Positions 10,265-28,073 of a DNA stretch of 64,000 bases are shown in pieces. The translations under genes and the position numbers were made by a program. The notes beneath the pieces were generated by a model. That model was not told where the DNA came from. It saw only the letters and a list, made by a program, of their open reading frames with translations, and did no database searches. This DNA is from Cytophagales bacterium (GTDB lineage: Bacteria; Bacteroidota; Bacteroidia; Cytophagales; Cytophagaceae): assembly GCA_004294225.1 (NCBI GenBank), contig REBA01000029.1:2648-66647 (forward strand), read 5' to 3'. Every line of letters starts with the position of its first letter. Position 1 is the first letter of the stretch.

Positions 10265-12349
10265 ATGTTTTCTATAAATAAAATTGCTGATTTCTTGTTG
10301 ATTAATGTATTGTGTTTTAGATTAGGTTTGTGTTTTATTTTACTTAATGTACTAAATTTTTATTCCGCTAAGGCCCAAATATTAGATGACAGCACGAAGC
10401 AGGTTTATAGTAGCAAGACCACTAAATATGTATTAGAAGAAGATTTTCTAAATGGAGATTATTTAGTTCAGAAAACAGACTCTACATTGAAGATAATGGG
10501 GGCAAAGAACAGTATTGATACCTCATTTAGTGGATTTCATAATTATTCTTTTTTATTTAGAGGCACACAGCCCGCTCAAGATTTGGGGAATTATTTGAGT
10601 CCTATTCAGCCTATCTACTTTCAACAAACCACCCAAATCGGTAAGCAATTCGGATATACTGCCTTTGATATATACACAATTCCATCCAATAAAATCAAAT
10701 ACTATGACACCAAGTCTCCTTATTCCCAACTCAATTATAAACAAGGAGGTATTGGGCAGCAAGGAATGGAAGTAGATTTAAGCAGAAACATTTTACCCAA
10801 TTGGAATATAGGTTTTGACCTAAGAAGACAAACTTCCAAAAAGATATTGGCCTCCAATAATGGAGTAGGTGGAAAACAAAAAGCCTTAGAGTCTAGCGAT
10901 TATTTCTTTGCTGCATATACTAGATTTTACACCAAAAACGAAAGATACCAACTCTTGGCAAATCTTAATCATGGTCATCAAATCTATTTTAACAACGGTG
11001 GTATAAAGCCTACAGCAAAAGATAGTATTGTAAGTGAGAATTTCTCCTATCAGTTGGCTTCGAGCTATCTTAGCAATGCACGAACTATAGATAAAAGAAT
11101 CAATTATCATCTATACCAAGAATATCATTTATTGAAAAACAAAACCATTCAAATCTATACCATTACAGATTATACCCGAAGAACTTTTAGATTCAATAAT
11201 AAACTAGCATCAACTGATAATAAGACTTTTCTAGCGGACACTTTGTTCTATAATACAGCACCACTGGTTAATCCAACACTTGGAGGTTTAAAGCAACAAT
11301 TTAATTTCACGATGCTCAACCTAAACGACCGAACTGATTTTAATGATTTTGAAAACCAGATAGGGATTAAAGCAAAACAAGGAAAATTAGATTATCGATT
11401 TTTTGTAAGAAGAAGAGATTTTTCTGTACAACAGTTGAATTATGCTAAAGATAGTCTCCTTTTTAGTAAGGACTCGATAAGTTTTTTAAATGCAGATACA
11501 ATCCCTACCAATAGCAAATATTCAGAAAATTTTGTTGGGGCAAGATTAAGATATTCCTTTCAACCCAATTCCCAATTAATTTTCGATGGGGAGTATATGC
11601 TCGGTAGAGATTATCGTTACAAAATAGAATTCATTAACAAATATTTAAAATTAGGCTATTCAAAAATTTTTCATTCTCCAACCCTTGCTCAACTTGAGCA
11701 TAGAAGCAATGTAAGATCAATGACATGGAAAAATATCGATAACGAAGGCAATATAAAATTCTTGAACCCGCAGCTCGATAAATTTTATTTCAATACTGCC
11801 ATAAGTTCGCCCAAACACTTTTTGAGTATTGGTGTTAGCTATGAAATAAATAGAAATTTAGTGTACTTTGATAACCAAGCAAAACCTCGTCAAGCCAACC
11901 AAACATTAAACTTTCTGACAGCAGACCTGTCTGCTGGGCTTAGTGTTTGGAAATTTCATGTAGAAACTTTTTGGAAATACACTCATCAAAACATTGATAG
12001 TTTTTGGGTAGTACCTAAGTTGTTCAATAAAAATAGGCTTTATTTTCAATCTAATATATATAATAAGGCAGCACTGTTACAATTGGGTGTAGATACTTAT
12101 TGGAGAAGCACTTATTTGGGGGCTAGTTATATGCCTGTTACACAACAATTTTATAAAAATGATAGCTTTGAATTGAAAAGTTTCTTGCAAGTAGATGTTT
12201 TTCTGAATGTTCAGATTAAGTACGCTACTTTGTTCTTTAAATATGCATATATAAACAAGGGACCCAATGGTGGATATTTTATCACCCCTGGTTATACAGC
12301 CATACCAAATTCCTTTGACTTCGGTATTCGCTGGATGTTTTTTGATTAA
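10265..12349 (+). CDS. Outer-membrane beta-barrel protein (putative-porin family)
   Basis: Has a signal peptide ending 'SAKAQ', alternating aromatic beta-strand patterns and the C-terminal 'FDFGIRWMFFD'. Confidence 0.5.
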   Translation: MFSINKIADFLLINVLCFRLGLCFILLNVLNFYSAKAQILDDSTKQVYSSKTTKYVLEEDFLNGDYLVQKTDSTLKIMGAKNSIDTSFSGFHNYSFLFRGTQPAQDLGNYLSPIQPIYFQQTTQIGKQFGYTAFDIYTIPSNKIKYYDTKSPYSQLNYKQGGIGQQGMEVDLSRNILPNWNIGFDLRRQTSKKILASNNGVGGKQKALESSDYFFAAYTRFYTKNERYQLLANLNHGHQIYFNNGGIKPTAKDSIVSENFSYQLASSYLSNARTIDKRINYHLYQEYHLLKNKTIQIYTITDYTRRTFRFNNKLASTDNKTFLADTLFYNTAPLVNPTLGGLKQQFNFTMLNLNDRTDFNDFENQIGIKAKQGKLDYRFFVRRRDFSVQQLNYAKDSLLFSKDSISFLNADTIPTNSKYSENFVGARLRYSFQPNSQLIFDGEYMLGRDYRYKIEFINKYLKLGYSKIFHSPTLAQLEHRSNVRSMTWKNIDNEGNIKFLNPQLDKFYFNTAISSPKHFLSIGVSYEINRNLVYFDNQAKPRQANQTLNFLTADLSAGLSVWKFHVETFWKYTHQNIDSFWVVPKLFNKNRLYFQSNIYNKAALLQLGVDTYWRSTYLGASYMPVTQQFYKNDSFELKSFLQVDVFLNVQIKYATLFFKYAYINKGPNGGYFITPGYTAIPNSFDFGIRWMFFD

Positions 12350-12748: not shown

Positions 12749-13048
12749 ATGTATTTTATTGAAAAAACGATAGAATTTGATAGATGGTTCAGAAAGTTAA
12801 GCGACCTGAGAACAAAAGCAAAAATTTTGTTCAGACTTCAAAAATTAGAAAAAGAAGAACACTTTGGAGATACTGAATCTGTTGGAGATGGAGTTAGAGA
12901 GTTGAAAATTAACTACGCAAAAGGTTATAGAGTATATTTCAAAGAAATTGATGGGAAAGTAATTATTCTGCTTATTGGAGGTGATAAATCAACTCAGCAA
13001 AAAGACATTGAAAAAGCAAAAAATATTTGGAATAAAATAAAAAAATAA
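12749..13048 (+). CDS. higB: Type II toxin, RelE/ParE superfamily (HigB-like 'addiction module killer')
   Basis: A 99-aa protein with 'FDRWFRKL...AKILFRLQKLE...GDGVRELKINYAKGYRVYF'. Toxin-first order with a 3-nt gap to the antitoxin. Confidence 0.8.
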   Translation: MYFIEKTIEFDRWFRKLSDLRTKAKILFRLQKLEKEEHFGDTESVGDGVRELKINYAKGYRVYFKEIDGKVIILLIGGDKSTQQKDIEKAKNIWNKIKK

Positions 13049-13051
13049 AAA

Positions 13052-13336
13052 ATGGAAACATCAAAATTTGATATTGCAGATTATTTGGACAGCAATAAAA
13101 TGATTGCAGAATATCTAAATACAGTTTTGGAAGATGGCAATGACGATGAAATTGTAACTGCTATCGGACATATTGCAAAAGCAATAGGTATGACTAAAAT
13201 TGCAGAAGAAACTGGAATGAGTAGACCTAGCTTGTACAAAGCATTGTCTGAAGGAGCAAAACCTCAGTTCTCAACAATAATGAAAGTTCTGAAAGCAGTT
13301 GGAGGAAAAATACATATAAATCCATTAACCTCTTAA
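13052..13336 (+). CDS. higA: HigA-family antidote protein (HTH)
   Basis: A 94-aa protein with 'DIADYLDS...IAEYLN...IGHIAKAIGMTKIAEETGMSRPSLYKALS'. Confidence 0.8.
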   Translation: METSKFDIADYLDSNKMIAEYLNTVLEDGNDDEIVTAIGHIAKAIGMTKIAEETGMSRPSLYKALSEGAKPQFSTIMKVLKAVGGKIHINPLTS

Positions 13337-13938: not shown

Positions 13939-14352
13939 TTATCGCTTAAAGGCAAGAACACTCACACAGCACTCAGATTCTGGGTTGAAATTAAACTTCA
14001 AATAGTACATTCCTGTTGATTTACAATTATAAGCTATAGCTGGATAATATTTATTGTTTTTTTTATCATAATTAGATGCCAACATTTTTCTTGAAGCATC
14101 AAACAAGGTAACTTCTACATTTTTGGCTCCTCCATCTTTGTCACAAAGAATAAGCATATAATTGGTTTCTTTACTAAACACATAGGATTGCTCCATTTCA
14201 TTTCCTATTTTTTCCATTTGGTAGGTCTTCAAGAAAGTATAACCGTTACCCATTTTTGAAATACATTCATCTGGTTTGCATTGAGCATTGACCATTTGTG
14301 TGCTAGTCCATAAAAAGACGACTAAAGTGCCAATTTTGAAGATAGTGTTCAT
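13939..14352 (-). CDS. Hypothetical secreted Cys-containing protein
   Basis: The signal peptide ends 'VNAQ'. There are 7 Cys, including a C-terminal 'ESECCVSV'. Confidence 0.45.
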   Translation of the reverse strand: MNTIFKIGTLVVFLWTSTQMVNAQCKPDECISKMGNGYTFLKTYQMEKIGNEMEQSYVFSKETNYMLILCDKDGGAKNVEVTLFDASRKMLASNYDKKNNKYYPAIAYNCKSTGMYYLKFNFNPESECCVSVLAFKR

Positions 14353-14442: not shown

Positions 14443-15333
14443 TTAAGAAGTAATTCCATCTCGAATGGTTTTTACAGTATTCAAAATTGAATTTACTTGT
14501 TCGTCTGATATTATTACTTTGCTTTCACTTTGGTCTTCAATTACCAATACACCATTTACTTCTTTCATAGAAGATTCTTTGTAGGTGTATGAAATTTCTA
14601 CCTGATTAAATATTTTATTGAGTTCAAGCAATTGATTATTTAGCAAATTAATAGAAGGATCAGATTTAAAGTTGGATAATAACAATAGCAATTGGTTTAA
14701 TACGATTTTTTGCTCTCCGATTTTTTCATACAATTCTTTATTCTTTGTTTTCACTGCAACATTACAAGAGATATATACCGCCTCGAGCCAACCGCCAGTA
14801 AGTAAAAGTACACTTTGATCGGAACGTTTTTCTTTGTGTAGAAACTCGTTGATATGTTGAAAATTAGAGGTAGTGATATATAATAAGGAATCAATATTGT
14901 TGGAATTTGAGGCTAATCTCTTGATGGTGTTAAAATCATAAAATTGACCTATATTCAGTTCATCCGCCATAGTTTTTATTGCATCTAGATACACCAATGC
15001 ATCTTTAGATTTGTTGTAAATATTGATGTAACCCAAATCTGTGCCATACATACCAAGATTTAATGCTCTTTTATAGCTCGTATTGTAGTTTTCCTTATTT
15101 TCTGTAGGGTTTAGTATTTTTGAGTCATAAGCTCCTCCAGACTCTTTAATAAGCATTGATATCTCAATAGGAGAGGGGATAGATCTAATGATGTCACCAA
15201 TAGCTTGATCAGAAATCTTGCTTACTTGTGAAGTAGTATCTATTGCTTCACTAATAATTTGCTCGTTAGAGTTTTTATTATTACTACAAGCCCATATTCC
15301 TAAAATGGTTGATATTAAAAAAACTTTTTTCAT
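14443..15333 (-). CDS. Hypothetical lipoprotein downstream of the ABC transporter
   Basis: Has a lipobox, 'ILGIWAC', followed by a predicted helical protein. It lies 108 nt downstream of the ABC gene on the same strand. Confidence 0.5.
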   Translation of the reverse strand: MKKVFLISTILGIWACSNNKNSNEQIISEAIDTTSQVSKISDQAIGDIIRSIPSPIEISMLIKESGGAYDSKILNPTENKENYNTSYKRALNLGMYGTDLGYINIYNKSKDALVYLDAIKTMADELNIGQFYDFNTIKRLASNSNNIDSLLYITTSNFQHINEFLHKEKRSDQSVLLLTGGWLEAVYISCNVAVKTKNKELYEKIGEQKIVLNQLLLLLSNFKSDPSINLLNNQLLELNKIFNQVEISYTYKESSMKEVNGVLVIEDQSESKVIISDEQVNSILNTVKTIRDGITS

Positions 15334-15441: not shown

Positions 15442-18400
15442 TTAAGGATTCAAGGGTTTTTTATGAAGAAATCGAAATTCAATAATTTTTTTCAAGACAT
15501 CAAAGTATAGAAGGATAAATAGTACAACAGTCATCAACCATATTACTGAAATATTGAACCAGAAAGTGCCTATAGATACTCCAAATAGCATTTTATTGGG
15601 TGCATAAAAATGGCTTCTAATATTGAAAATTTCTTTTGAGGAAGTTGTATTGAAATATACAGCATTCGTTTTAGGATAAATTTCTTGATTGAAGATGATA
15701 AATTTATTTTTATTCTCTGTATTGACCACTAAATCTGCTAAAGATTCATTATGATATTCATCTTTGAGTTGTGTTACATTATTTATTTTAAGTTGTTGTA
15801 GCAAGCTTTGACTAATAAAATCTTTCTTTTTATTGGCTTGATTAAATATGTTTTTATAAGTGTCTTCTAAAGTAATTAATATAGATTTCAGTTGTTCTAT
15901 TTTATCTGTAGAAATAGTATTGATATTTAATTGATTAAAATATTCTTTATCAATGTTTTTCAATAAGAAAACTTGTTTATTTAACTCGTTCCTAATGATT
16001 TCCAAGTTTGACTTATTAGTGTTGACTTGTTCAACTTCTTTGGAACCTAAGTTTTGAGCAATGTTATCCAATCTTTCTTCAATTTCAGGTAAAGTATATA
16101 CTAGGTGAAAATCTGAAATGTTTATGATTTGTTCTACATCAAAGAAGTTTCTTTCAAATTGATTGCTTTTAAATTGCTCGACTGCAAGTGCCTCAAAAGC
16201 CCACCTAGATGCCATAAAATCTGCAATAACAGGAGTATTCTTTTTATTACCTATCAAGGAATTTATTTTGTCAAAATTAAACATAGCTCCACTTAAAATC
16301 ATCTGTGGAATAAGTAGTAAAGGGATGATAATGTATACCGTAACTGCAGTGTTAAATCCAGACGAGATAAGCAAACCAAGTACATTGGCCATACAACCAA
16401 TAGACCATAATATTAACCAATATTCTAAGGTCATTGATTTTATAGCGAGTATTGAATTTCCTACAAGTACAAATGTAAAAGCTTGAAAAGCAGAAAATGA
16501 GAATAGTATTATTAGTTTCGATGATAGATAGCTAAATCGGCTTAAATGAAGGAGTGATTCTCGCTTTAGTATTTTTCTGTCTTTGATAATTTCCTCAGCA
16601 CTTATACTTAGACCAATAAACAAGGCAACTACAATACTCATTAGAATGTATGCAGGAATATTATCGTTGTTTCTGTATTTATAAATTCCTTCTGGATTAT
16701 CAGTATAGCGAATAATGACAGAAAGAATTAAGGATAGTATTCCAGCCTCTAAGAGGTTAATTATCATGTATTGCTGATTACTCCATTTGGTTTTTAAATC
16801 CCTATTGATGTATATGAGCAATTGTTGAATTTTGCTAGGTATTTTAAGTATTTTTGGTGCAGATTCAGTAAGATTAGAAAGGAATTTTACTTGAAAATTC
16901 TGTAGAAAAAATTCGTTCCAATGATTTGGGGTAATTTTTCTGTTATTGGTATAATTCCCATATTCATCAACTACTTTTTCTTCAATGATATTGAAGAGTT
17001 GTTCCACATTAATATTTCCACAGCTATTGCATTGCCCATGGTCAGAATCTACTTGGTTGGAGATTCTTTTAAAATAAGTAATTGCATCTATTGGGTGACC
17101 ATTGAAGATAAAATATCCTCCCGTATCGAGAATATACATTTTATCAAATATTTTGTAAATATCTGAAGAAGGTTGATGTATGACCACAAATATGAGTCTT
17201 CCCTTTAGGGAAAGCTCTTTGAGAAGGTCAATTACGTTTTCTGAATCCCGAGAAGATAAGCCAGAAGTAGGTTCGTCAACAAATAAGACAGAAGGTTCTC
17301 TGATAAGCTCTAAGGCTATATTTAATCTTTTTCTCTGTCCACCACTTATCTTTTTATTCATTGGGTTCCCAACTTCTAGGTGCTTAATATGCTCAAGCCC
17401 AAGATTAGATAGTACTTTGTTTACTTTTTCTGTGATTTCTTCATTGGATAAATCATTAAAGCAGAATTTTGCATTAAAATATAAATTATCAAAAACAGAT
17501 AACTCCTCAATCAGTAAATCATCTTGAGCCACATAACCAAAAGCACCTTGAATTTTTTCTCTCTCTGTATGGATATTTATACCATTCAATAGAACTTCTC
17601 CTTTCGATGGTTTCTCTATACCAGCCATTACATTAAGAAGCGTAGTTTTTCCTGCTCCACTGGCACCCATTATGCCTATAAGATTTCCTGCATCTTCAGA
17701 AATATTAATATTTCTGAGTCCTATAGCTTGGTTTGGAAATTTGAATTCGAGATTTTTTACATTAAAGACTAATTGTATCTGTCTTTGATTAGATATAAAG
17801 TTATTAACTATATCACTATAATAAAATGAACTTCCTTTGGAAGACCTTGCGATGCTTCCTGGTGAGAATAGAATGACATCGTCTGAGGCTACAGTTATAC
17901 CATTCATTGACATGTCACTTTCACCGATATATCGAAAAAATATCATTTCTGTGCTAGAAATTCTATAAAACAGAACAGTGCCTTCGATATATTCAGAGAA
18001 AAGATATTTAGTTTGGTATATATGCTTCTCGAAGGGGAATTTGTTATTGATAATAATAATATGGTCATTAGAAAAATTGCTAATATTATTTTCTAATACA
18101 AATTGTTCCAATAACGTGTATTCCTCTTTTTCTAGGTTGAATGCATCTGCTACTGTATGTATAATCTGCATTCTTTGAGGGGTCAATTTCCTATTGGATT
18201 TGACCATCTCAAGAAGTTCTATAATAACTACTACTTTTTGTTTTTGTGTAAGCGTTTTGTTGATTTTCTTACATATCACTAATGTTTTTACTGAGTCTTT
18301 TACAGAAGTCAACTTTTCTGGTTTAGAAGTACTCTCTACATCATTTTTTTGTTCTTCATAACCTACAAAGTCATCAAAGAGGGCAACGTACTCTTTTACT

Positions 18401-18528
18401 GTATCAATATTTAACTTCTTTTTAAAAGAATTAATTACATAAGTTCGTTCAATTGAAGTTGCTCCTCCATCTTGTTTGGAAACAATGGCATATAATTGTG
18501 CAAGTGCTTTAAGTATTTCTTCACTCAT
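15442..18528 (-). CDS. ABCG/White-type fused ABC transporter (ATPase plus ABC-2 permease) with a TerB-like N-terminus, an FHA-like or beta-sandwich region and a ~230-aa C-terminal coiled-coil/TM extension
   Basis: Walker A is 'GASGAGKTT', the signature is 'ISGGQRKRL', Walker B is 'LFVDEPTSGL' and the H-loop is 'VIHQPSSDIY'. About 6 TM segments follow the ATPase. The N-terminus 'LAQLYAIVSKQDGGATSIERTYV' is TerB-like. A final TM segment is 'FWFNISVIWLMTVVLFILLYF'. Confidence 0.8.
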   Translation of the reverse strand: MSEEILKALAQLYAIVSKQDGGATSIERTYVINSFKKKLNIDTVKEYVALFDDFVGYEEQKNDVESTSKPEKLTSVKDSVKTLVICKKINKTLTQKQKVVVIIELLEMVKSNRKLTPQRMQIIHTVADAFNLEKEEYTLLEQFVLENNISNFSNDHIIIINNKFPFEKHIYQTKYLFSEYIEGTVLFYRISSTEMIFFRYIGESDMSMNGITVASDDVILFSPGSIARSSKGSSFYYSDIVNNFISNQRQIQLVFNVKNLEFKFPNQAIGLRNINISEDAGNLIGIMGASGAGKTTLLNVMAGIEKPSKGEVLLNGINIHTEREKIQGAFGYVAQDDLLIEELSVFDNLYFNAKFCFNDLSNEEITEKVNKVLSNLGLEHIKHLEVGNPMNKKISGGQRKRLNIALELIREPSVLFVDEPTSGLSSRDSENVIDLLKELSLKGRLIFVVIHQPSSDIYKIFDKMYILDTGGYFIFNGHPIDAITYFKRISNQVDSDHGQCNSCGNINVEQLFNIIEEKVVDEYGNYTNNRKITPNHWNEFFLQNFQVKFLSNLTESAPKILKIPSKIQQLLIYINRDLKTKWSNQQYMIINLLEAGILSLILSVIIRYTDNPEGIYKYRNNDNIPAYILMSIVVALFIGLSISAEEIIKDRKILKRESLLHLSRFSYLSSKLIILFSFSAFQAFTFVLVGNSILAIKSMTLEYWLILWSIGCMANVLGLLISSGFNTAVTVYIIIPLLLIPQMILSGAMFNFDKINSLIGNKKNTPVIADFMASRWAFEALAVEQFKSNQFERNFFDVEQIINISDFHLVYTLPEIEERLDNIAQNLGSKEVEQVNTNKSNLEIIRNELNKQVFLLKNIDKEYFNQLNINTISTDKIEQLKSILITLEDTYKNIFNQANKKKDFISQSLLQQLKINNVTQLKDEYHNESLADLVVNTENKNKFIIFNQEIYPKTNAVYFNTTSSKEIFNIRSHFYAPNKMLFGVSIGTFWFNISVIWLMTVVLFILLYFDVLKKIIEFRFLHKKPLNP

Positions 18529-18550
18529 CGTTTATAGCCTATGTGAAAAT

Positions 18551-18913
18551 TTAATAAGAGATGATTTCAAAAGGGAGCTCTATTAATTCTGAAAATTCTT
18601 CTCCAGCTTCCTGCATATCTTCATCATCTTTATGAAAATACCATAATACTTTTGCACCTGAAATAGGCTCACATTTTGATAATAAATCTAAAATGAGTTT
18701 TGAGGAAGCGGTGTTAAAATATTCAAGTTTTATTTCAAAAGCTGAGGATTCATTAGGCGATTTGCTATACTGGTCTAGCCATTGAATTAAAGGTTGATAA
18801 AATTCAGCGGCATCTTCTGGAAGAGAGCGCCCTGAGATTTCAAATTTACCTTCGTTTTTATCTAAGATTACTTTTGGTGTATCTTCAGTTCCTAATATTT
18901 CTAATCTATTCAT
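18551..18913 (-). CDS. DUF1987 protein (SiaC-like partner-switch phosphoprotein)
   Basis: A 120-aa protein with 'LEILGTEDTPKVILD...GKFEISGRSLPEDAAEFYQPLIQWL...LEYFNTASSKLILDLL'. A Thr sits at residue 68. Confidence 0.75.
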   Translation of the reverse strand: MNRLEILGTEDTPKVILDKNEGKFEISGRSLPEDAAEFYQPLIQWLDQYSKSPNESSAFEIKLEYFNTASSKLILDLLSKCEPISGAKVLWYFHKDDEDMQEAGEEFSELIELPFEIISY

Positions 18914-18930
18914 AACTAATATATTTTATT

Positions 18931-19473
18931 TCAATCGTTGATTCTAGCAATTTTTGTTTTAAATGAGAAAAATGAATATTGTTCATTTATAGATTCAAAG
19001 CCATATTCTAGCTTCTGACCAGATTTTCTTGCGATGTCTACAAAACCTAAACCTGCACCTCCTTTTTCAGACAATTCTCCATTTTTTATTAAATCTTTAT
19101 AAAGATTTTTTAGACCTTCTTTATCCAAAGAATTGATGTGATGAAGTTTGCCTTCTAGGCCTTCTACATATTGGGTTTGAATAAAGTTACCCGACATGAT
19201 TACATAAAAGTCTTCTTCTTTGCCAATCATAAAAATAGCACCTTTTTCTTCTTCTGAGATAACAATATCAGAGTGTTTACAGATGTTTTGGAGGCATTCT
19301 ACCATAACATTGAAGACTTTCTTTTTGGTATTGATTTCTTCTCCTAAGGAATCAAGGTTTCGCTCTGCCATTGTCAGTACAGACTTGGTGATTTCTTGCG
19401 TAAATTCGCCTTCATAGACAAGAATCAGGTTCTTACTTGACATGATTTTGTGTATGTCATAAATAAATTTCAT
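18931..19473 (-). CDS. SiaB-like HATPase-fold protein kinase (anti-sigma-kinase-like)
   Basis: A 180-aa protein with 'NVMVECLQNICKHS' (N-box-like) and 'GGAGLGFVDIARKSG' (G2-box-like). It sits between the PP2C and DUF1987 genes. Confidence 0.7.
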   Translation of the reverse strand: MKFIYDIHKIMSSKNLILVYEGEFTQEITKSVLTMAERNLDSLGEEINTKKKVFNVMVECLQNICKHSDIVISEEEKGAIFMIGKEEDFYVIMSGNFIQTQYVEGLEGKLHHINSLDKEGLKNLYKDLIKNGELSEKGGAGLGFVDIARKSGQKLEYGFESINEQYSFFSFKTKIARIND

Positions 19474-19508
19474 AAAAGCAATTGGTGGTTTGTGAGTGAA
19501 TAATTGAT

Positions 19509-22205
19509 TTAAAATTTGATTCCTATTAAGAGTACATCATCAGTTTGTTTGTTATCGCCTTTCCATTGTTCAAATTCAGACAGCAGTGTAACGTGAATTT
19601 TTTCAATGGGGTTATTAGAATTTTCAAGAATAATGTTTTTTATTTTATTGGCAGTGAATTTTCTGTTTTCAGCCCCACCGAATTGATCTGGAAATCCATC
19701 GGAAAAGAAAAATATGGCATCGCCTTTTTTTACTTTTATTTGATGATTGGTGAAATGAGTTTGGTTTTTATATATTCCACCACCTATTGCCCATTTGTCT
19801 CCTTTATATTCTGTTATTTGCCCATTAGATAAATGTAATAACTGACGATGTGCACCTGCAAATTCTACTATTTTTGATTTATGGTTGATTTTACAAAAAG
19901 CTATATCCATACCATCTTTGATGGCTTCTTCAGAGTTTTCTTTTATAAGTGTATTATTTACTCTTTGATCAAGTTGATCTAGAATTATTGCTGGATTTTC
20001 ATCTGGCATAGCATCTACGATGTTGTTCAATTGAAAGTACCCAACTAGAGACAACATTGCCCCTGGTACACCGTGTCCTGTACAATCTACGGCAGCAATA
20101 TAGGAGGTATCATCTTTTTGGATAAACCACGGAAAATCGCCGCTTACAACATCTCTTGGTTTGTAAAGTATAAATGATTCTGGAAATATTGTTTGAATTA
20201 ATTTTGTATCAGGAATAATCGCATTTTGAATTCTTTTTGAGTAATTGATGCTTTCATTGATGTTTTTGTTTTTTGCTTGAATTTCAAGTTCAATTCGTTT
20301 GCGTTCTGTGATATCGTGAGATACTACTAATACAGATTCTAATTCCTCTTCATTAAATTCAGGTATTGCATTAATTTGCATTATTCTTTCTCCAATAGGA
20401 GAGTGGTATCCTGCTTCCATCTTGATTTTTGTGGAATTTACTTTTATCTCATCAAGGATTTTCTGCCATGTAGCTATTATTCCATTGCCAATTTTTAAAT
20501 CCGATAATGATTCGTTGATAAAAGCGTTAGGTTTATTTCCTGTATATACTTCAATGGATGGATTTGTATAAGCAATTATACCTTCGCTGCTTATTCTAGT
20601 GATTAAATCTGGACTGTTTTCAGAAAGTGCTTGCATGTTTTTACGCATTCTTTCTTCGATTTCTGCTTTCCTTTTAAGAGTAATATCTCTAGCATTGAAT
20701 ACAATCCCCTTTACTGCTGGGTCATCTAGTAAGTTTTTTCCTGTTGCTTCCAGCCAAATCCAATCTCCATTTCTTTTTAGATATTGAAATTGCAAGTTGA
20801 ATGTTTGAGATGGGTGAACTATTAATTTTCTGATAGTATCTTGAAATTCACTTAGATTTTCTTCGTGTAAATGTTTGTCTTCTTTGGTACCAATAAGCTC
20901 TTCCGCATTATAGCCTAATATTCTATTTACAGAGGGGCTAACATATTTTATTTTACCATCTTTTTCATAGATAGTGATTACTTCTGAAGCATTTTCTAGT
21001 AAAGAATGCATTCTTTTTTGGGTATTAGAAACTTCTTTAATTTGCTCTTCTAATTTTTGATTAGACATTTTTAGCTCCTCTTGGGTAGCTTGCATTTCTT
21101 CTGCGTTTTGTCTAAGCTCTTCTTGTTGTTGCCTCAATTCGGAGGACATTTTTTGTGACTGCTCAAGGTGCAACTGAGTTTGTAAGTTCACTTGAATATT
21201 GAAAATAGTTCTAGCAATGATAGGACTTACTTCTTCAATAAACTTAATTTGATTTGGAGTAAATTTCTCAAATCCAGCAAATTCAACCACTCCATAGACT
21301 TTTTCATTATTGATTAATGGACTAATTAGAATACATGTAGGTTTTTTATCTCCTAAAATACCAGAAGAGATAGATTCATAACCTTTAGGGATTTCTGTAC
21401 GAAGTATTGTATATTGCTCTGCAGCAGCTTGACCTATGAGACCTTCTCCTAAGAAAAATTTCTTAGTTACAAATTTCTTTCTGTTATAGGCATAAAGAGC
21501 AATAGCTTCTATTGAAGTACGTTGTTCCTCGTCACCTTCATTGACTACAAAAAAAGCTCCTTGAACTGCATTAATTCTTGTAATCATATATTTGATTACG
21601 TCATTACTTAATTCAGTTAGGCTGTTATTATTTCTTAAAATTTCTCCTAGATCAGCTACTCCATTGATAATCCAGTTTCTTTCTATTTCTCTTTGATCTG
21701 CTTCTTGGAGTGCATTACTCATGTTTAATAAGGAGTGCCCAAGCACATCTTCTTTGCTTAATGCTTTGAAATCTTCGTCAAATTTCCCTTCTCCTATTTG
21801 GTAAGCATATTGTGCAGTATTTCTAAGATTGGAAGTGATATTGTTTAGTTTTTTAGACATCTCACCAATTTCATCTTGGCTATCGATACTAATTTCTTTA
21901 GGAAGTATTCCTTGTTCTATTAAGGATAAACATTCGTTGAGGTAATTAATAGGGGATAAGAATTGTTTTAAAAAATAATATATTCCATAAATTGATATAG
22001 ATAGGGAAATAATGATAATTCCCCAGTAAATCGAGTCTATATTAGCAATCAAATTACCAGCATTGTCAGAAGGAATTTTAAAAGTATTGATGATGTTGTT
22101 AAAAATAGAGTTGCTAATAAAATATACAACCAATAAAATGATGGTCATAAATAATAAGACCATTAAGTTTATCTTGATTCGTGTAGTAAGAAATTTATTT
22201 AACAT
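19509..22205 (-). CDS. Membrane sensor PP2C/SpoIIE-family phosphatase (TM, HAMP, GAF, coiled coil, two PAS, PP2C); SiaA-like
   Basis: Has two N-terminal TM segments and the HAMP motif 'DEIGEMSKKLN'. The GAF region contains 'GEGLIGQAAAEQ...VYGVVEFAGF', and PAS is marked by 'ITIYEKDGKIKYVSPS'. The C-terminal PP2C region contains 'VSGDFPWF...AAVDCTGHGVPGAM...DGMDIAF...FFFSDGFPDQ...DDVLLIGIKF'. Confidence 0.8.
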   Translation of the reverse strand: MLNKFLTTRIKINLMVLLFMTIILLVVYFISNSIFNNIINTFKIPSDNAGNLIANIDSIYWGIIIISLSISIYGIYYFLKQFLSPINYLNECLSLIEQGILPKEISIDSQDEIGEMSKKLNNITSNLRNTAQYAYQIGEGKFDEDFKALSKEDVLGHSLLNMSNALQEADQREIERNWIINGVADLGEILRNNNSLTELSNDVIKYMITRINAVQGAFFVVNEGDEEQRTSIEAIALYAYNRKKFVTKKFFLGEGLIGQAAAEQYTILRTEIPKGYESISSGILGDKKPTCILISPLINNEKVYGVVEFAGFEKFTPNQIKFIEEVSPIIARTIFNIQVNLQTQLHLEQSQKMSSELRQQQEELRQNAEEMQATQEELKMSNQKLEEQIKEVSNTQKRMHSLLENASEVITIYEKDGKIKYVSPSVNRILGYNAEELIGTKEDKHLHEENLSEFQDTIRKLIVHPSQTFNLQFQYLKRNGDWIWLEATGKNLLDDPAVKGIVFNARDITLKRKAEIEERMRKNMQALSENSPDLITRISSEGIIAYTNPSIEVYTGNKPNAFINESLSDLKIGNGIIATWQKILDEIKVNSTKIKMEAGYHSPIGERIMQINAIPEFNEEELESVLVVSHDITERKRIELEIQAKNKNINESINYSKRIQNAIIPDTKLIQTIFPESFILYKPRDVVSGDFPWFIQKDDTSYIAAVDCTGHGVPGAMLSLVGYFQLNNIVDAMPDENPAIILDQLDQRVNNTLIKENSEEAIKDGMDIAFCKINHKSKIVEFAGAHRQLLHLSNGQITEYKGDKWAIGGGIYKNQTHFTNHQIKVKKGDAIFFFSDGFPDQFGGAENRKFTANKIKNIILENSNNPIEKIHVTLLSEFEQWKGDNKQTDDVLLIGIKF

Positions 22206-22232
22206 TGAATGAAAATGATTTATTCTTAATGA

Positions 22233-22982
22233 TTATATAATTGATTTGCAAAAACTTGATTTTGATTTTTCGATAATTTCTTGTTCAAGAACTGTAAGGT
22301 CTTTAAAAAGTGCTACTTCTAATATTCCTATTGTAGCTGAACTATTGTTCGAAAAAGGAATAATATAAATATAGCTAGGGCTACTACTTCCTAATCCAGA
22401 GAATACATTGATATATCCTTCAGGGATATTGTCTAATTTTAAGGTTCTATTTTCCTTTGCGGAAAGTCCTATCAAGCCTTCTCCAAATTGGTAACTTGTG
22501 ATTTGATTTTCTTTAGCAACAAAAGCATAAGAACAAACCAAACTAACTTTTTCTTCATTCTGATGGCACTGGTATAAAACACCTTGTCCCGCTTGAATAG
22601 CTGAACACATTAAATTAAATGTTTTTTCTATTTTTTGTTGAATCGAGCCTTCGCTTTGCTCAATTTGATTTAATTCACTTGTAAATTTATCTAATTGAAG
22701 CTTGTCACTTTTCTGAACATCTCCTGAGTTTGTTGTGTTTTCTAAAGTATTTTCTTGAATTTTTTCTACATAAATAATTGTGGAGTTTTTATAAGTATAA
22801 AAAGAAAAGAGTACAATTAATGTAGACAAAATAAGCACTGCGATTACAATAGCCTCATCTATTGCCTGAAATTGATAACTGTTGATAAATTTTACTAATA
22901 GATATTTTGAACTTAGATAAAGCAAACCCAACAAGAACAATGTATTGAAGAAGATAAGCAAACGTTGGTATAGTAATTTCAT
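22233..22982 (-). CDS. Membrane-anchored GAF-domain protein (first gene of the operon)
   Basis: Has two TM segments and then a GAF-like region, 'GQGVLYQC...YQFGEGLIGLSAKENRTLKLDNIPEGY...GILEVALF'. This is paralogous to the GAF of the next gene. Confidence 0.6.
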   Translation of the reverse strand: MKLLYQRLLIFFNTLFLLGLLYLSSKYLLVKFINSYQFQAIDEAIVIAVLILSTLIVLFSFYTYKNSTIIYVEKIQENTLENTTNSGDVQKSDKLQLDKFTSELNQIEQSEGSIQQKIEKTFNLMCSAIQAGQGVLYQCHQNEEKVSLVCSYAFVAKENQITSYQFGEGLIGLSAKENRTLKLDNIPEGYINVFSGLGSSSPSYIYIIPFSNNSSATIGILEVALFKDLTVLEQEIIEKSKSSFCKSII

Positions 22983-24917: not shown

Positions 24918-27900
24918 ATGATTTTCCTCTTGAATAATATTCGTTTAGTTCTACTTACATCACTAATGCTGATGAGAATAGGTTATCTATGCTATTCGAA
25001 ACCATTTCATAAGCCCAATGAATCCAAAAAGCTGGAGTACCTTTTTATCGAAAACAAAGGACAGTGGAAATCAGAGATATTATTTAGAGCCAATATTGGG
25101 CATGGTGATTTGTTTTTAGAGAAAAACCGTATGGTTTATTTCCTTAAAGACAATTCTATATTTGATCATCATTCCTTAGTTAAAGGTTTACCTTCAGATA
25201 AAATAAAACAAAATGCACATATTTTTAAAGTAGATTTTGTGGGAGCTAATACCAACTCTACTATGGAGACTGAACATCCTGCACCTTGCACCTACAATTA
25301 TTTCAGAGGTAACGACGCTTCAAAATGGGTTTCCAATGCAAAATCCTATAAAAAAATCAATTATCGTCAATTGTATGAAGGTATAGACTTAGATTTTTAT
25401 AGCAAAGGAGACTTTCTGAAATACGATTTTATTGTTCAACCGAACGTTAGCCCAAATCAAATCAAATTAAAATTTGAAGGAGCAGATGCTTTAAAACTTG
25501 AAAATGGGCAATTGTTGATTCAAACTTCTATCGTGAACATCAGAGAAAAAGCCCCAATTGCTTATCAGATAATCAATCAAAAAAAGTGCAATGTGCCTTG
25601 TAGGTTTGTCCTTCGTGGAAATGAAGTTAGCTACGAATTCCCAAATGGATACAATCAAAATTATCAATTAATTATAGATCCAGAACTTATTTTTTCTACT
25701 TACTCAGGTTCCAAAGTGGATAATTTTGGGTTTACAGCAACATTTGATTCAGATGGTTTTTTGTATTCTGGAAGTGCTGTCTTTGATGACCCAAATATTC
25801 AGAATGGCTACCCTACTACCTTAGGAGCATTTCAAAATGAAATTACTGGAGCATGCGATTTTGCTATAAGCAAATACGACACTACTGGTACAACAATGAT
25901 TTATTCCACCCTAATTGGTGGTTCACTCGACGAAGTACCTCATAGTATTGTTGCCAATACAAATGGAGAATTATATATCTTAGGCACTACTGGCTCTGCA
26001 GATTTTCCATTATTAAATCCAATTCAAGCTGTTTTTAATGGGGGAGACCCTGTACTTTTTCAATCTATCAATGTATCGCATCCTTTTGGAGTAGATTTAT
26101 TTATTACCAAACTCAATAACACAGGTTCGCAAATAATTAGCTCCACTTTTTTTGGCGGTACTAAAAATGATGGAATCAATAGCCTTGCAAATTCTTTTCC
26201 AATCAATTTTTTAGGTCGTGGATTGCTGAATATATTTTCTCCACTAAGCTATAATTATGCTGATGAAATAAGGGGAGAAATTGATTTGGACGCCAATGGA
26301 GAAGTGTATATTACCACCTGCACCGCTTCTCCAGATTTTCCTGTTACTCCCAATGCCTTTCAGCAAGTATTCGGAGGGGGCAGATTAGATGGCTGTATTA
26401 CCAAGTTTGATAACTCAGTTAGTCAAGTTATTTGGAGTTCTTTTTTAGGGAGCAGTGAATCAGATGCTTTATATTCTATAGACTTTGATAGCGTCAACCA
26501 AATCTACGTAGCTGGTGGTACTAATTCTATAGACCTTCCTACCCAACTTACTTCTTTTCAAAGAAATTCAAACCGTGGTAGGGCAGAGGGATACGTTGCT
26601 AAAATAAGTGCAAATGGCAATACTATCTTGGCATCTACCTATTGGGGTAATTTTTCTTATGACCAGATTTATTTTGTAGAATTAGATGGTAGGGGAAATG
26701 TGTATGTACTTGGTCAATCAGAGGATGGAGGAAATTATTTTATTAGAAATACAGCTTACTCAGTTCCTAATGCTGGGCAATTTATTACCAAATTCTCCAA
26801 TAATCTCAATCAGCTTATTTGGTCCACATCTTTTGGTACTCTCGGTGGCAGACCTAATTTGTCTCTAACAGCATTTCTTGTAGATTTATGCAGTAATGTG
26901 TATTTATCTGGTTGGGGCGGGAAAACAAATTCTGATTTGCTTGCTTATCTACCCAATGGTAATTCATTCAATATCTTTAGAGCAAATAACACTGTTTCTA
27001 CCGCTGGTCTGCCTACTACAGCAGACGCTTTTCAGAGAACTACAGATGGAAGCGACTTTTATTTGATGGTATTAGGTGACTCCTCTAGATTAGTCTATGG
27101 TTCATTTTTTGGTGGAGATAGAAGCACAGAGCACGTAGATGGTGGTACAAGTAGGTTTGATAGAAAAGGTAAGATTTATCAATCAGTCTGTGCTGGATGT
27201 CAAGGAAACAGTGATTTTCCGATAAAACCAACAAATGCTGTTTCTCCCATAAATGGTAGTACAAATTGTAACAATGCTGTTTTTAAATTTGATTTTAATC
27301 TGCCTATTGTAGTTGCAGATTTTAACTTTTCAGGTTGCAATCCTATCTTTTTTAATAATAAAAGTCTAACCCAAAAAGCCACCAATTTCCTTTGGAAATT
27401 TGGAGATGGTCAAACTTCAAGAGAGAAAACCCCATCACATACTTATGCTAGGTCTGGTACCTACAAAGTAACCTTAGTTGTTACAGATAATTTTACCTGT
27501 AATCTTGGAGACTCAATTACAAAACTAGTCTATGTTTCGCCTCTTTACGATGGGGTAAGTGCTACTGCTAATCCTGAGACTATAATTGAAGGAAAAAGCA
27601 CTTTATTATCTGCGTTTCCAGTTGGAAATTATACCTATCTTTGGTCTCCCTCAAAAATATTATCTAATCCTAACTTACCTTCTACAACAGCAAAGCCCAG
27701 AGATACGACAGATTTTGAAGTAGAAATTACGGATAAGTTGAATAATTGCTCTTATAAAGCTAAAGTAAGGGTAAATGTTATTGATGTCATTTGCGATGAG
27801 CCAAACATCTTTGTTCCCAATGCTTTTAGCCCAAATGACGATGATAACAACGAAGTTCTAAAAGTTAGAGGAATAAATATAGCCACTATGTATTTTGCAA

Positions 27901-28073
27901 TTTATGACCGCTGGGGCGAAAAAGTGTTTGATACCAATACACAGGAAAAAGGTTGGGATGGAAGATATAGAGGCAAAAAACTAGATCCAGATGTATATGT
28001 TTACTATCTAGAAGGTATTTGTATAGATGAAGAAAAGTTTCTTTTTAAAGGTAACATTAGCCTAATACGATAA
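24918..28073 (+). CDS. Large cell-surface protein with beta-propeller repeats, a PKD domain and a T9SS type-B (gliding-motility-associated) C-terminal domain
   Basis: PKD is marked by 'FLWKFGDGQTSREKTPSHTYARSGTYKVTLVVTD'. The type-B CTD reads 'IFVPNAFSPNDDDNNEVLKVRG...IYDRWGEKVF...GWDGRYRGKKLDPDVYVYYL'. Confidence 0.85.
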   Translation: MIFLLNNIRLVLLTSLMLMRIGYLCYSKPFHKPNESKKLEYLFIENKGQWKSEILFRANIGHGDLFLEKNRMVYFLKDNSIFDHHSLVKGLPSDKIKQNAHIFKVDFVGANTNSTMETEHPAPCTYNYFRGNDASKWVSNAKSYKKINYRQLYEGIDLDFYSKGDFLKYDFIVQPNVSPNQIKLKFEGADALKLENGQLLIQTSIVNIREKAPIAYQIINQKKCNVPCRFVLRGNEVSYEFPNGYNQNYQLIIDPELIFSTYSGSKVDNFGFTATFDSDGFLYSGSAVFDDPNIQNGYPTTLGAFQNEITGACDFAISKYDTTGTTMIYSTLIGGSLDEVPHSIVANTNGELYILGTTGSADFPLLNPIQAVFNGGDPVLFQSINVSHPFGVDLFITKLNNTGSQIISSTFFGGTKNDGINSLANSFPINFLGRGLLNIFSPLSYNYADEIRGEIDLDANGEVYITTCTASPDFPVTPNAFQQVFGGGRLDGCITKFDNSVSQVIWSSFLGSSESDALYSIDFDSVNQIYVAGGTNSIDLPTQLTSFQRNSNRGRAEGYVAKISANGNTILASTYWGNFSYDQIYFVELDGRGNVYVLGQSEDGGNYFIRNTAYSVPNAGQFITKFSNNLNQLIWSTSFGTLGGRPNLSLTAFLVDLCSNVYLSGWGGKTNSDLLAYLPNGNSFNIFRANNTVSTAGLPTTADAFQRTTDGSDFYLMVLGDSSRLVYGSFFGGDRSTEHVDGGTSRFDRKGKIYQSVCAGCQGNSDFPIKPTNAVSPINGSTNCNNAVFKFDFNLPIVVADFNFSGCNPIFFNNKSLTQKATNFLWKFGDGQTSREKTPSHTYARSGTYKVTLVVTDNFTCNLGDSITKLVYVSPLYDGVSATANPETIIEGKSTLLSAFPVGNYTYLWSPSKILSNPNLPSTTAKPRDTTDFEVEITDKLNNCSYKAKVRVNVIDVICDEPNIFVPNAFSPNDDDNNEVLKVRGINIATMYFAIYDRWGEKVFDTNTQEKGWDGRYRGKKLDPDVYVYYLEGICIDEEKFLFKGNISLIR

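Follow-up and report, generated by a model that had tools for sequence, protein, structure and literature searches.

The question raised by the locus described here is what a SiaA/SiaB/SiaC-type partner switch might control when the place of its usual output gene, encoding a diguanylate cyclase, is taken by the gene for a transporter. The locus lies in a 64,000-nucleotide stretch of contig REBA01000029.1 (positions 2,648 to 66,647 of the forward strand, GenBank assembly GCA_004294225.1) from a Cytophagales bacterium, and this whole stretch is referred to below as the window. The locus is a cluster of seven consecutive minus-strand genes, running from 22982 to 13939 in a window of about 32% G+C, which encode in order a transmembrane (TM) protein with a GAF-like domain (p1), a SiaA-like sensor phosphatase, a SiaB-family protein kinase, a SiaC-family (DUF1987) phosphoprotein, an ABCG-type transporter, a predicted lipoprotein (d296) and a small protein with a signal peptide (d137) (Table 1). 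The reading favoured here, and considered probable, is that the seven genes form a unit in which the switch controls the exporter post-translationally, through unphosphorylated SiaC acting on the N-terminal module of the transporter. A preliminary description, prepared from the nucleotide letters without database searches, had instead proposed that an FHA domain of the transporter reads phosphorylated SiaC.

Identity of the switch proteins and of the output gene

The 180-aa protein matched the Pfam family DUF6272 (1.7e-42) and the NCBIfam model SiaB_fam_kinase (NF038262; 172 bits, cutoff 85), and aligned to Pseudomonas aeruginosa SiaB (6KKO_A; E=1.6e-13) with its residue E59 opposite E61, the predicted catalytic residue of the P. 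aeruginosa protein (PMC7647112). The 120-aa protein scored 131.4 bits against the SiaC family (PF09345, cutoff 24.5) and aligned to P. aeruginosa SiaC (6KKO_C) with E=1.5e-13. In this alignment T68, within the window motif YFNTASSK, coincides with T68 of the P. aeruginosa motif LYLNTSSIK at the start of helix alpha2, the residue that has been mapped as the phospho-acceptor (PMC7647112), and Y65, N67 and T68 were invariant in all 77 of 77 SiaC homologs, including those from loci that lack adjacent SiaA and SiaB genes. Pfam recognised HAMP_2, GAF_2, two PAS and a SpoIIE/PP2C domain in the 898-aa protein, and its PP2C domain aligned to that of P. aeruginosa SiaA (6K4E; E=1.9e-41) with the metal-site motifs GDF, VDCxGHG, DGFxDQ and DD all matched.

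The full-length SiaA-like protein scored 198.6 against the equivalog model NF038263 (cutoff 700) and the kinase 80.9 against the equivalog NF038264 (cutoff 225). For SiaA, SiaB and SiaC alike the equivalog cutoff of NCBIfam was not reached, and the switch proteins of the window are regarded as family members, not orthologs, of the P. aeruginosa proteins. Judged from these sequence comparisons, the three proteins make up a genuine module of the SiaA/B/C family, in which by homology the SiaB-family kinase would phosphorylate SiaC and the SiaA-like phosphatase would dephosphorylate it. The DUF1987, SiaB-like, PP2C and TerB assignments of the preliminary description, the last of them concerning the transporter, were all upheld by Pfam and NCBIfam models. 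A 291-aa open reading frame (ORF) in a related locus (L147:5021-5896) joins a SiaB-like (DUF6272) and a SiaC domain in one protein and is followed by a second, free-standing SiaC gene. An exact-sequence look-up of the SiaC protein of the window gave no record.

No GGDEF motif, searched for as [RK]xG[GAS][DE]EF, was found in the window or in 80 related loci when all frames were read, in agreement with the earlier statement that the cluster has no GGDEF gene. The output position, which in P. aeruginosa is the place of SiaD, is occupied by the ABC transporter gene, and no diguanylate cyclase is co-encoded.

Conservation of the gene neighbourhood

Related loci were collected by a scan with the N-terminal module of the transporter using one genome per species, which gave at least 556 loci, and the best 80 of these were examined by tblastn with the window proteins. 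The order TM-GAF protein, SiaA-like phosphatase, SiaB, SiaC, ABC transporter, 296-aa protein and 137-aa protein was present in about 75 of the 80 genome loci, a recurrence that places the arrangement far beyond chance, and the full gene order was kept in relatives with 33-40% identity in the N-terminal module. The SiaC gene was on the same strand as the transporter gene, upstream of it and within 1.2 kb, in 76 of the 78 informative genome loci, with a median gap of 99 nt; the distance was 1.2 kb in L065. SiaC was the most persistent neighbour of the transporter: SiaB-SiaC-ABC was kept and SiaA was missing in L073 and L075, only SiaC-ABC was kept in L046 and L067, with a cytidine deaminase gene upstream, and Sporocytophaga myxococcoides had the order CheR-SiaB-SiaC-ABC-d296-d137.

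In the converse test, metagenome loci were picked through SiaC alone. Wherever SiaC identity was at least 54% and there was room downstream, the transporter N-terminus was encoded directly downstream (35 of 35 metagenome loci). In a sister clade with 45-52% SiaC identity, about 16 loci had a SiaB-SiaC pair convergent to a gene on the other strand for a paralogous transporter of 1023 aa (Table 1), whose N-terminal module was 28-33% identical and whose core was 45-47% identical. Since the adjacency is kept in the convergent orientation, the link between SiaC and the transporter does not depend on co-transcription.

Juxtaposition of SiaC and the transporter is a conserved feature of more than 100 examined loci. 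The preliminary description had asked whether the adjacency to this ABC architecture recurs across genomes, and had held that its proposal would fall if it did not; the genome loci and the loci chosen through SiaC both answer that it recurs, and the objection fails with the conserved adjacency. Its five-gene operon was accurate in part. The five same-strand genes and their close spacing of 17-35 nt were confirmed (intergenic gaps of 27, 35, 17 and 22 nt, in order), but the conserved unit is larger and also takes in d296 and d137, together with CheR, CheB and dCache components in most relatives.

Conserved gene order is no proof of physical interaction, and d296 and d137 are conserved as well, with no known link to SiaC; the switch and the transporter might therefore be merely co-regulated within one programme, such as envelope remodelling, and never make contact. 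This is held to be very unlikely, as the adjacency is kept in two orientations, SiaC has no enzymatic or DNA-binding domain and the known SiaC acts only by binding a partner (PMC8457831), and about 260 aa of the transporter form a family-specific cytoplasmic regulatory module that has no other evident purpose.

Organisation of the transporter

Pfam placed TerB at residues 8-139, ABC_tran at residues 271-422 (113.9 bits) and ABC2_membrane at residues 568-756 (71.6 bits) of the 1028-aa protein. Residues 271-759, which comprise the nucleotide-binding domain (NBD) and the transmembrane domain (TMD), aligned to human ABCG2 with E=1e-39, and the score against the subfamily model TIGR00955 was 248.7, which did not reach the cutoff of 736. 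The ATPase motifs are intact, with Walker A GASGAGKTT at residue 288, the signature ISGGQRKR at 394, Walker B VLFVDEPTSGL at 414 and the H-loop VIHQPS at 449. The TerB model (PF05099, cutoff 24.4) scored 25.0 bits with the full protein and 31.4 bits with residues 1-152, and precomputed PF05099 matches were present in most transporter homologs.

Hydropathy placed five TM segments at residues 588-749, followed by about 240 residues and a last TM segment at 993-1011. The motif WAFEALAVEQF and the end of the Pfam alignment coincide with the start of the loop known as 'EL3' in ABCG transporters, and the charges of the loops obey the positive-inside rule. On the basis of the loop start, the hydropathy and the charge distribution, residues about 750-990 are assigned to a periplasmic insert (about 200-240 aa), which had no significant sequence match in the PDB and where d296 and d137 might plausibly dock.

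Residues 1-267 were modelled with AlphaFold2 from a 97-sequence alignment. The model had a mean predicted local distance difference test score (pLDDT) of 88.7 and a predicted template modelling score (pTM) of 0.84, and its eight helices (residues 3-145) are followed by nine strands (157-236) and one last helix (237-245). According to this model the N-terminal module of the transporter is confidently folded and cytoplasmic.

The cluster genes of two loci, L082 and L083, are split into several ORFs, with the ABC gene divided, for example, into 353 + 733 aa or 277 + 452 + 277 aa. The splits may stem from assembly frameshifts, and such frameshifts may account for many of the short-fragment database homologs of the N-terminal module. 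In another locus the transporter gene (L011:3973-7185, minus strand) has immediately downstream a convergent gene for a 1070-aa Reg_prop/Y_Y_Y-SpoIIE phosphatase.

The FHA-like domain and the phospho-state of SiaC

The beta-rich region at about residues 157-245 is a 9-strand domain in the AlphaFold2 model, with a pLDDT of about 90-97 over residues 170-240. Every probable match (prob >=0.8) in a Foldseek search of this domain against the PDB was an FHA domain, at a probability of about 1, and the matches included Mek1, KIF1A, FHA1 of Rad53, CEP170, aprataxin and Bdellovibrio DgcB. E was only 0.03-0.1, TM-scores to the target were 0.45-0.57, and the domain has 9 strands as against 11. At the sequence level, residues 147-265 of the window protein gave nothing with Pfam FHA (PF00498), nor any YscD-type match, at E<=10, and 0 of 56 homologous domains matched at E<=5. 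When a profile of the beta-domain family was compared with the PDB, the only significant solved FHA domain was that of Mek1 (E=0.008), over the C-terminal half only; in this alignment the invariant LNG (N209-G210) falls on the second NG of Mek1, a structural one, and the Asn that canonically contacts phosphothreonine falls on a variable column.

Phosphothreonine is bound by FHA domains through a loop Arg, the His of Ser-x-x-His and the Asn of S/T-x-N-G. The residues invariant in the beta-domain family are G183, S192, F197, Y200, G202, N209, G210, F221, G224, S225, Y236/237 and D239, and there is no Arg and no His among them. When 1.84 billion representatives were searched with a profile of the domain, 361 clusters were retrieved. 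Of the 150 that were listed, the long members were transporters (about 970-1160 aa) that carry the domain near residues 135-250, and the remainder were shorter fragments; neither a canonical FHA protein nor a different architecture nor a fusion to SiaC was found among these 150 of the 361. As modelled, and as its sequence family is defined by these searches, the beta domain appears to have an FHA-like fold and belongs to a distinct family without the canonical phosphothreonine pocket. The FHA-like label of the preliminary description thus probably holds for the fold but not for the sequence, in which no FHA model matches and the phosphothreonine-binding residues are absent.

These results bear on the mechanism proposed with that label, in which a functional FHA domain would read phosphorylated Thr68 so that phospho-SiaC docks on the exporter and gates it. 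The probable structural matches are all FHA domains, one of them a bacterial FHA domain bound to a phosphopeptide, the family profile does reach Mek1, and an FHA-bearing ABC exporter regulated by Thr phosphorylation exists in Rv1747 (PMC3138270). However, the strand count is short, Pfam FHA and YscD-type models fail, no Arg or His is invariant in the domain and the binding Asn lies on a variable column, the large profile search gave no bridge to canonical FHA domains among the clusters listed, and in the sole characterised system phosphorylation of T68 blocks target binding and it is the unphosphorylated SiaC that binds (PMC8457831). Docking of phospho-SiaC through an FHA domain is thus not supported, given the missing sequence match and the absent phosphothreonine-binding residues, and is considered quite unlikely.

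Proposed mechanism

The SiaC of P. aeruginosa, when unphosphorylated, attaches to helices of SiaD with Y65, N67, T68 and S69 at the interface (PMC8457831), and phosphorylation of T68 by SiaB abolishes this binding and is reversed by SiaA (PMC8457831, PMC7647112). By analogy, a signal would be sensed by the membrane phosphatase (HAMP-GAF-PAS-PAS-PP2C), possibly together with the paralogous TM-GAF protein, and the phosphatase would remove the phosphate from Thr68 of SiaC, which the SiaB-family kinase would put back. Unphosphorylated SiaC would bind the cytoplasmic N-terminal module, on its TerB-like helices, its FHA-like beta domain or both, through the face formed by Y65, N67 and T68. Docking would alter the ATPase and transport activity, most simply by favouring a productive dimer, in the way that SiaC acts on SiaD, and phospho-SiaC would be released from the transporter. 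The exporter might then pass a substrate, probably lipid-like or another envelope component, to the periplasmic insert, the lipoprotein and the small secreted protein. The contact between SiaC and the transporter, the phospho-state that binds, the sign of the regulation and the substrate are all presumed in this scheme.

Several observations weigh against the scheme. The SiaC-transporter contact is proposed from genomic context and analogy, and the operon structure is read from gene spacing alone. A crude similarity-correlation ('mirror') test of SiaC against the N-terminus of the ABC protein, controlled for the transporter core, gave a partial r=0.19 (p=0.056) and did not single out the N-terminal module as the partner that co-evolves with SiaC. 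One informative genome locus, L011, and no other, is without SiaC, and in about 14 SiaB-SiaC loci of the sister clade no such transporter is encoded within 6 kb and the neighbours are housekeeping genes. Fold and sequence searches assigned no function to d296, d137 or the periplasmic insert.

The SiaB-SiaC pairs that stand alone would also fit an arrangement in which the transporter is the input: its TerB/FHA-like module would report flux or substrate load to SiaB and SiaC in the manner of the flux-sensing Bce-type transporters, and SiaC would regulate an unlinked target. Small SiaC-family adaptors could serve several partners, and TerB-like domains are possibly sensory. Such an arrangement is nevertheless unlikely: the cluster has no conserved candidate for the output (GGDEF protein, sigma factor or DNA-binding protein), an input is already supplied by the dedicated sensor phosphatase with its several domains, and the component that stays with the transporter is SiaC, not SiaA or SiaB. 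Control of the exporter by unphosphorylated SiaC is the reading retained.

Sensory components and the CheR/CheB genes of related clusters

The p1 protein has TM segments at about residues 3-33 and 44-62 by hydropathy and a cytoplasmic GAF-like domain at about residues 120-249, with the motif GEGLIG at 167. It had no Pfam match of its own, and its ortholog in Marivirga (L021) matched GAF_2 at 1.2e-9. The C-terminal half of p1 aligned to the GAF domain of the phosphatase (BLASTP E=2e-14), with GEGLIG in both, so that the two paralogous GAF domains noted in the preliminary description are real, and a p1 gene was upstream of SiaA in about 60 loci.

The cluster of most relatives opens with genes for CheR and a receiver-less CheB (197 aa), as at L021:2763-4209. 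Both were present in 59 of the 59 loci that have a SiaA-like gene and enough upstream sequence, and no CheA, CheW or methyl-accepting chemotaxis protein (MCP) was found alongside CheR and CheB in the related clusters. The phosphatase of these relatives is about 1150 aa long and has an extracellular dCache domain (for example L021:5412-8861). The window phosphatase has no dCache domain, and only a short loop separates its two TM segments; the window is therefore taken to hold a reduced version of the sensor; by tblastn, cheR and cheB were absent from the 64-kb window.

A coiled-coil motif, LRQNAEEM[QE]ATQEEL, varies hardly at all among the SiaA-like homologs whose genes follow those for CheR and CheB, and it is retained in the window phosphatase despite the lack of a nearby cheR or cheB. 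The motif is likened here to EExxA[ST], the methylation consensus of chemoreceptors. The nearest relatives (L002, L098 and L102) have EEMKVT and no CheR/CheB upstream. A literature search for CheR/CheB with PP2C gave nothing relevant, and one for CheB/CheR fusions gave noise only. Methylation of the phosphatase coiled coil is only a lead.

It is possible, and put forward tentatively, that the ancestral cluster encoded a full pathway, comprising input through an extracellular dCache sensor, reversible methylation of the coiled coil of the PP2C phosphatase by CheR and the receiver-less CheB, the SiaB/SiaC Thr switch, direct and phospho-state-dependent docking of SiaC on the family-specific TerB/FHA-like gate of the ABCG exporter, and export in which the insert, the lipoprotein and the small secreted protein would move an envelope component, the window then representing a reduced version. 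If true, the ancestral pathway would be one of chemotaxis-style adaptation without CheA, CheW or an MCP, with transport as its output.

Exported proteins and surroundings of the cluster

Of 72 informative loci, 71 had the d296 gene after the transporter gene and 70 had the d137 gene downstream. The d296 protein of the window is 100% identical to EAZ07_08020 of a Cytophagales metagenome-assembled genome. The d296 protein has a signal peptide plus Cys16, which was invariant in 79 homologs; its AlphaFold2 model (pLDDT 80) is a helical repeat with a small sheet, for which Foldseek against the PDB returned designed helical repeats and noise only, and it had no Pfam or NCBIfam match. For d137 no Pfam, NCBIfam or PDB sequence match was found. 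A gene for an Abhydrolase_2/FSH1-type serine hydrolase stands after d137 at L021:14642-15283 and in 42 other loci (about half); it is not in the window.

The genes that flank the cluster in the window are unrelated to it and encode a thioesterase, a flavin reductase, a type IX secretion system cargo protein, a porin and a toxin-antitoxin pair, the last of these just past the cluster. PADLOC defence models matched the cluster proteins by generic ABC-ATPase similarity only. A scan for promoters and terminators gave counts at or below the shuffled expectation with models that do not cover Bacteroidota promoters.

Table 1. Positions of the cluster genes, their domains and other features (window coordinates unless a locus is named)
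Feature	Position	Strand	Remarks
p1 (TM-GAF protein)	22233..22982	-	249 aa
SiaA-like sensor phosphatase	19509..22205	-	898 aa
SiaA-like, HAMP (preceded by TM-TM)	21822-21986	-	Pfam
SiaA-like, GAF	21204-21626	-	Pfam
SiaA-like, coiled-coil motif	21072..21116	-	residues 364-378; LRQNAEEMQATQEEL; resembles the chemoreceptor methylation consensus EExxA[ST]
SiaA-like, PAS	20679-21014	-	Pfam
SiaA-like, PAS	20295-20621	-	Pfam
SiaA-like, PP2C	19515-20114	-	Pfam
SiaB-family Ser/Thr protein kinase	18931..19473	-	180 aa; HATPase-like fold
SiaC-family (DUF1987) phosphoprotein	18551..18913	-	120 aa
SiaC-family, Thr68 codon	18710-18712	-	
ABCG/ABC-2-type half transporter	15442..18528	-	1028 aa
Transporter, TerB-like helical module	18112-18507	-	
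Transporter, FHA-like beta domain	17794-18060	-	
Transporter, NBD	17029-17763	-	
Transporter, TM1-5	16261-16827	-	
Transporter, periplasmic insert	15559-16281	-	
Transporter, TM6	15496-15552	-	
d296, predicted lipoprotein	14443..15333	-	296 aa; conserved transporter partner
d137, small Cys-rich protein, signal peptide	13939..14352	-	137 aa; conserved transporter partner
DUF7948-PKD-CHU_C protein, type IX secretion cargo	24918-28073	+	1051 aa; flanking region
Porin_10 outer-membrane protein	10265-12349	+	flanking region
Toxin-antitoxin-like pair	12749-13336	+	Gp49/HigB-like (99 aa) and HI1420-type antidote (94 aa, 2.3e-45)
Sister-clade transporter, convergent, L130	6528-9599 of L130	-	
Other sister-clade convergent loci			L131, L133, L142, L145, L146, L148, L149, L151, L153, L158, L162

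Comparison with known systems

A full-text literature search on DUF1987, DUF6272, SiaB and SiaC turned up work on P. aeruginosa and a single comparative study of Campylobacterota, and this cluster is described in none of them. The P. aeruginosa authors went no further than suggesting a possible regulation of neighbouring proteins by DUF1987 proteins (PMC8457831). The SiaA/B/C switch has so far been known only to regulate a diguanylate cyclase in Pseudomonas, and the cluster offers a candidate for a second and very different output, in a concrete and testable case of a partner switch that would gate a transporter after translation. It also defines a new cytoplasmic regulatory module, composed of a TerB-like part and a degenerate FHA-like domain, reveals CheR and CheB beside a phosphatase sensor and not a chemoreceptor in the relatives, and points to an uncharacterised envelope export system of transporter, lipoprotein and small secreted protein in gliding Cytophagales.

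The closest counterpart of the switch is SiaABCD of P. aeruginosa, with which the cluster shares all three switch families, aligned catalytic and acceptor residues, the order phosphatase, kinase, SiaC and output, and the T68 face that contacts SiaD (PMC8457831, PMC7647112). The two differ in the output, which is here a 1028-aa ABCG-type transporter and no GGDEF enzyme; in the phosphatase, which here has the arrangement HAMP-GAF-PAS-PAS, with dCache added in relatives, and aligns to SiaA in the catalytic domain only; and in the further components of the unit, namely the TM-GAF protein, the pair of exported proteins and the CheR and CheB of relatives. In the HptB-HsbR-HsbA/HsbD system of P. aeruginosa and the BgrSTUWV/BgrR system of Sinorhizobium meliloti, a PP2C phosphatase and an HATPase-type kinase likewise set the state of a small STAS-like adaptor that binds an enzyme and not a sigma factor (PMC8457831); there, in contrast, a canonical STAS protein serves as the adaptor, and what it regulates is a diguanylate cyclase, not a transporter. 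Chemosensory pathways that control something other than motility, such as Wsp, resemble the related clusters in that CheR and CheB accompany a sensor with an EExxA[ST] coiled coil; they differ in that CheA, CheW and an MCP signalling domain are lacking here, the CheB of the relatives has no receiver, and the window has neither cheR nor cheB.

The nearest precedent for the output is Rv1747 of Mycobacterium tuberculosis, an FHA-bearing ABC exporter that is positively regulated by Thr phosphorylation and encoded beside the kinase PknF (PMC3138270). Both systems have the NBD before the TMD, regulatory domains N-terminal to the ATPase and a kinase gene beside that of the transporter. In Rv1747, however, there are two canonical FHA domains, and the transporter is itself the substrate of a Hanks-type kinase, whereas the only kinase of the cluster is of the SiaB type with an HATPase fold, the phospho-acceptor is a separate adaptor, the FHA-like domain has no phosphothreonine-binding residues and a TerB-like module is present; the likeness is a functional analogy only. 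The preliminary description had been aware of no account of its wiring, and the literature search agrees for this cluster, but a Thr-phosphorylation-controlled, FHA-bearing ABC exporter was already known in Rv1747/PknF, wired differently. Given this precedent, gating of an exporter by Thr phosphorylation is not new as a general idea; what is new is an adaptor-mediated partner switch that would gate an exporter in this way.

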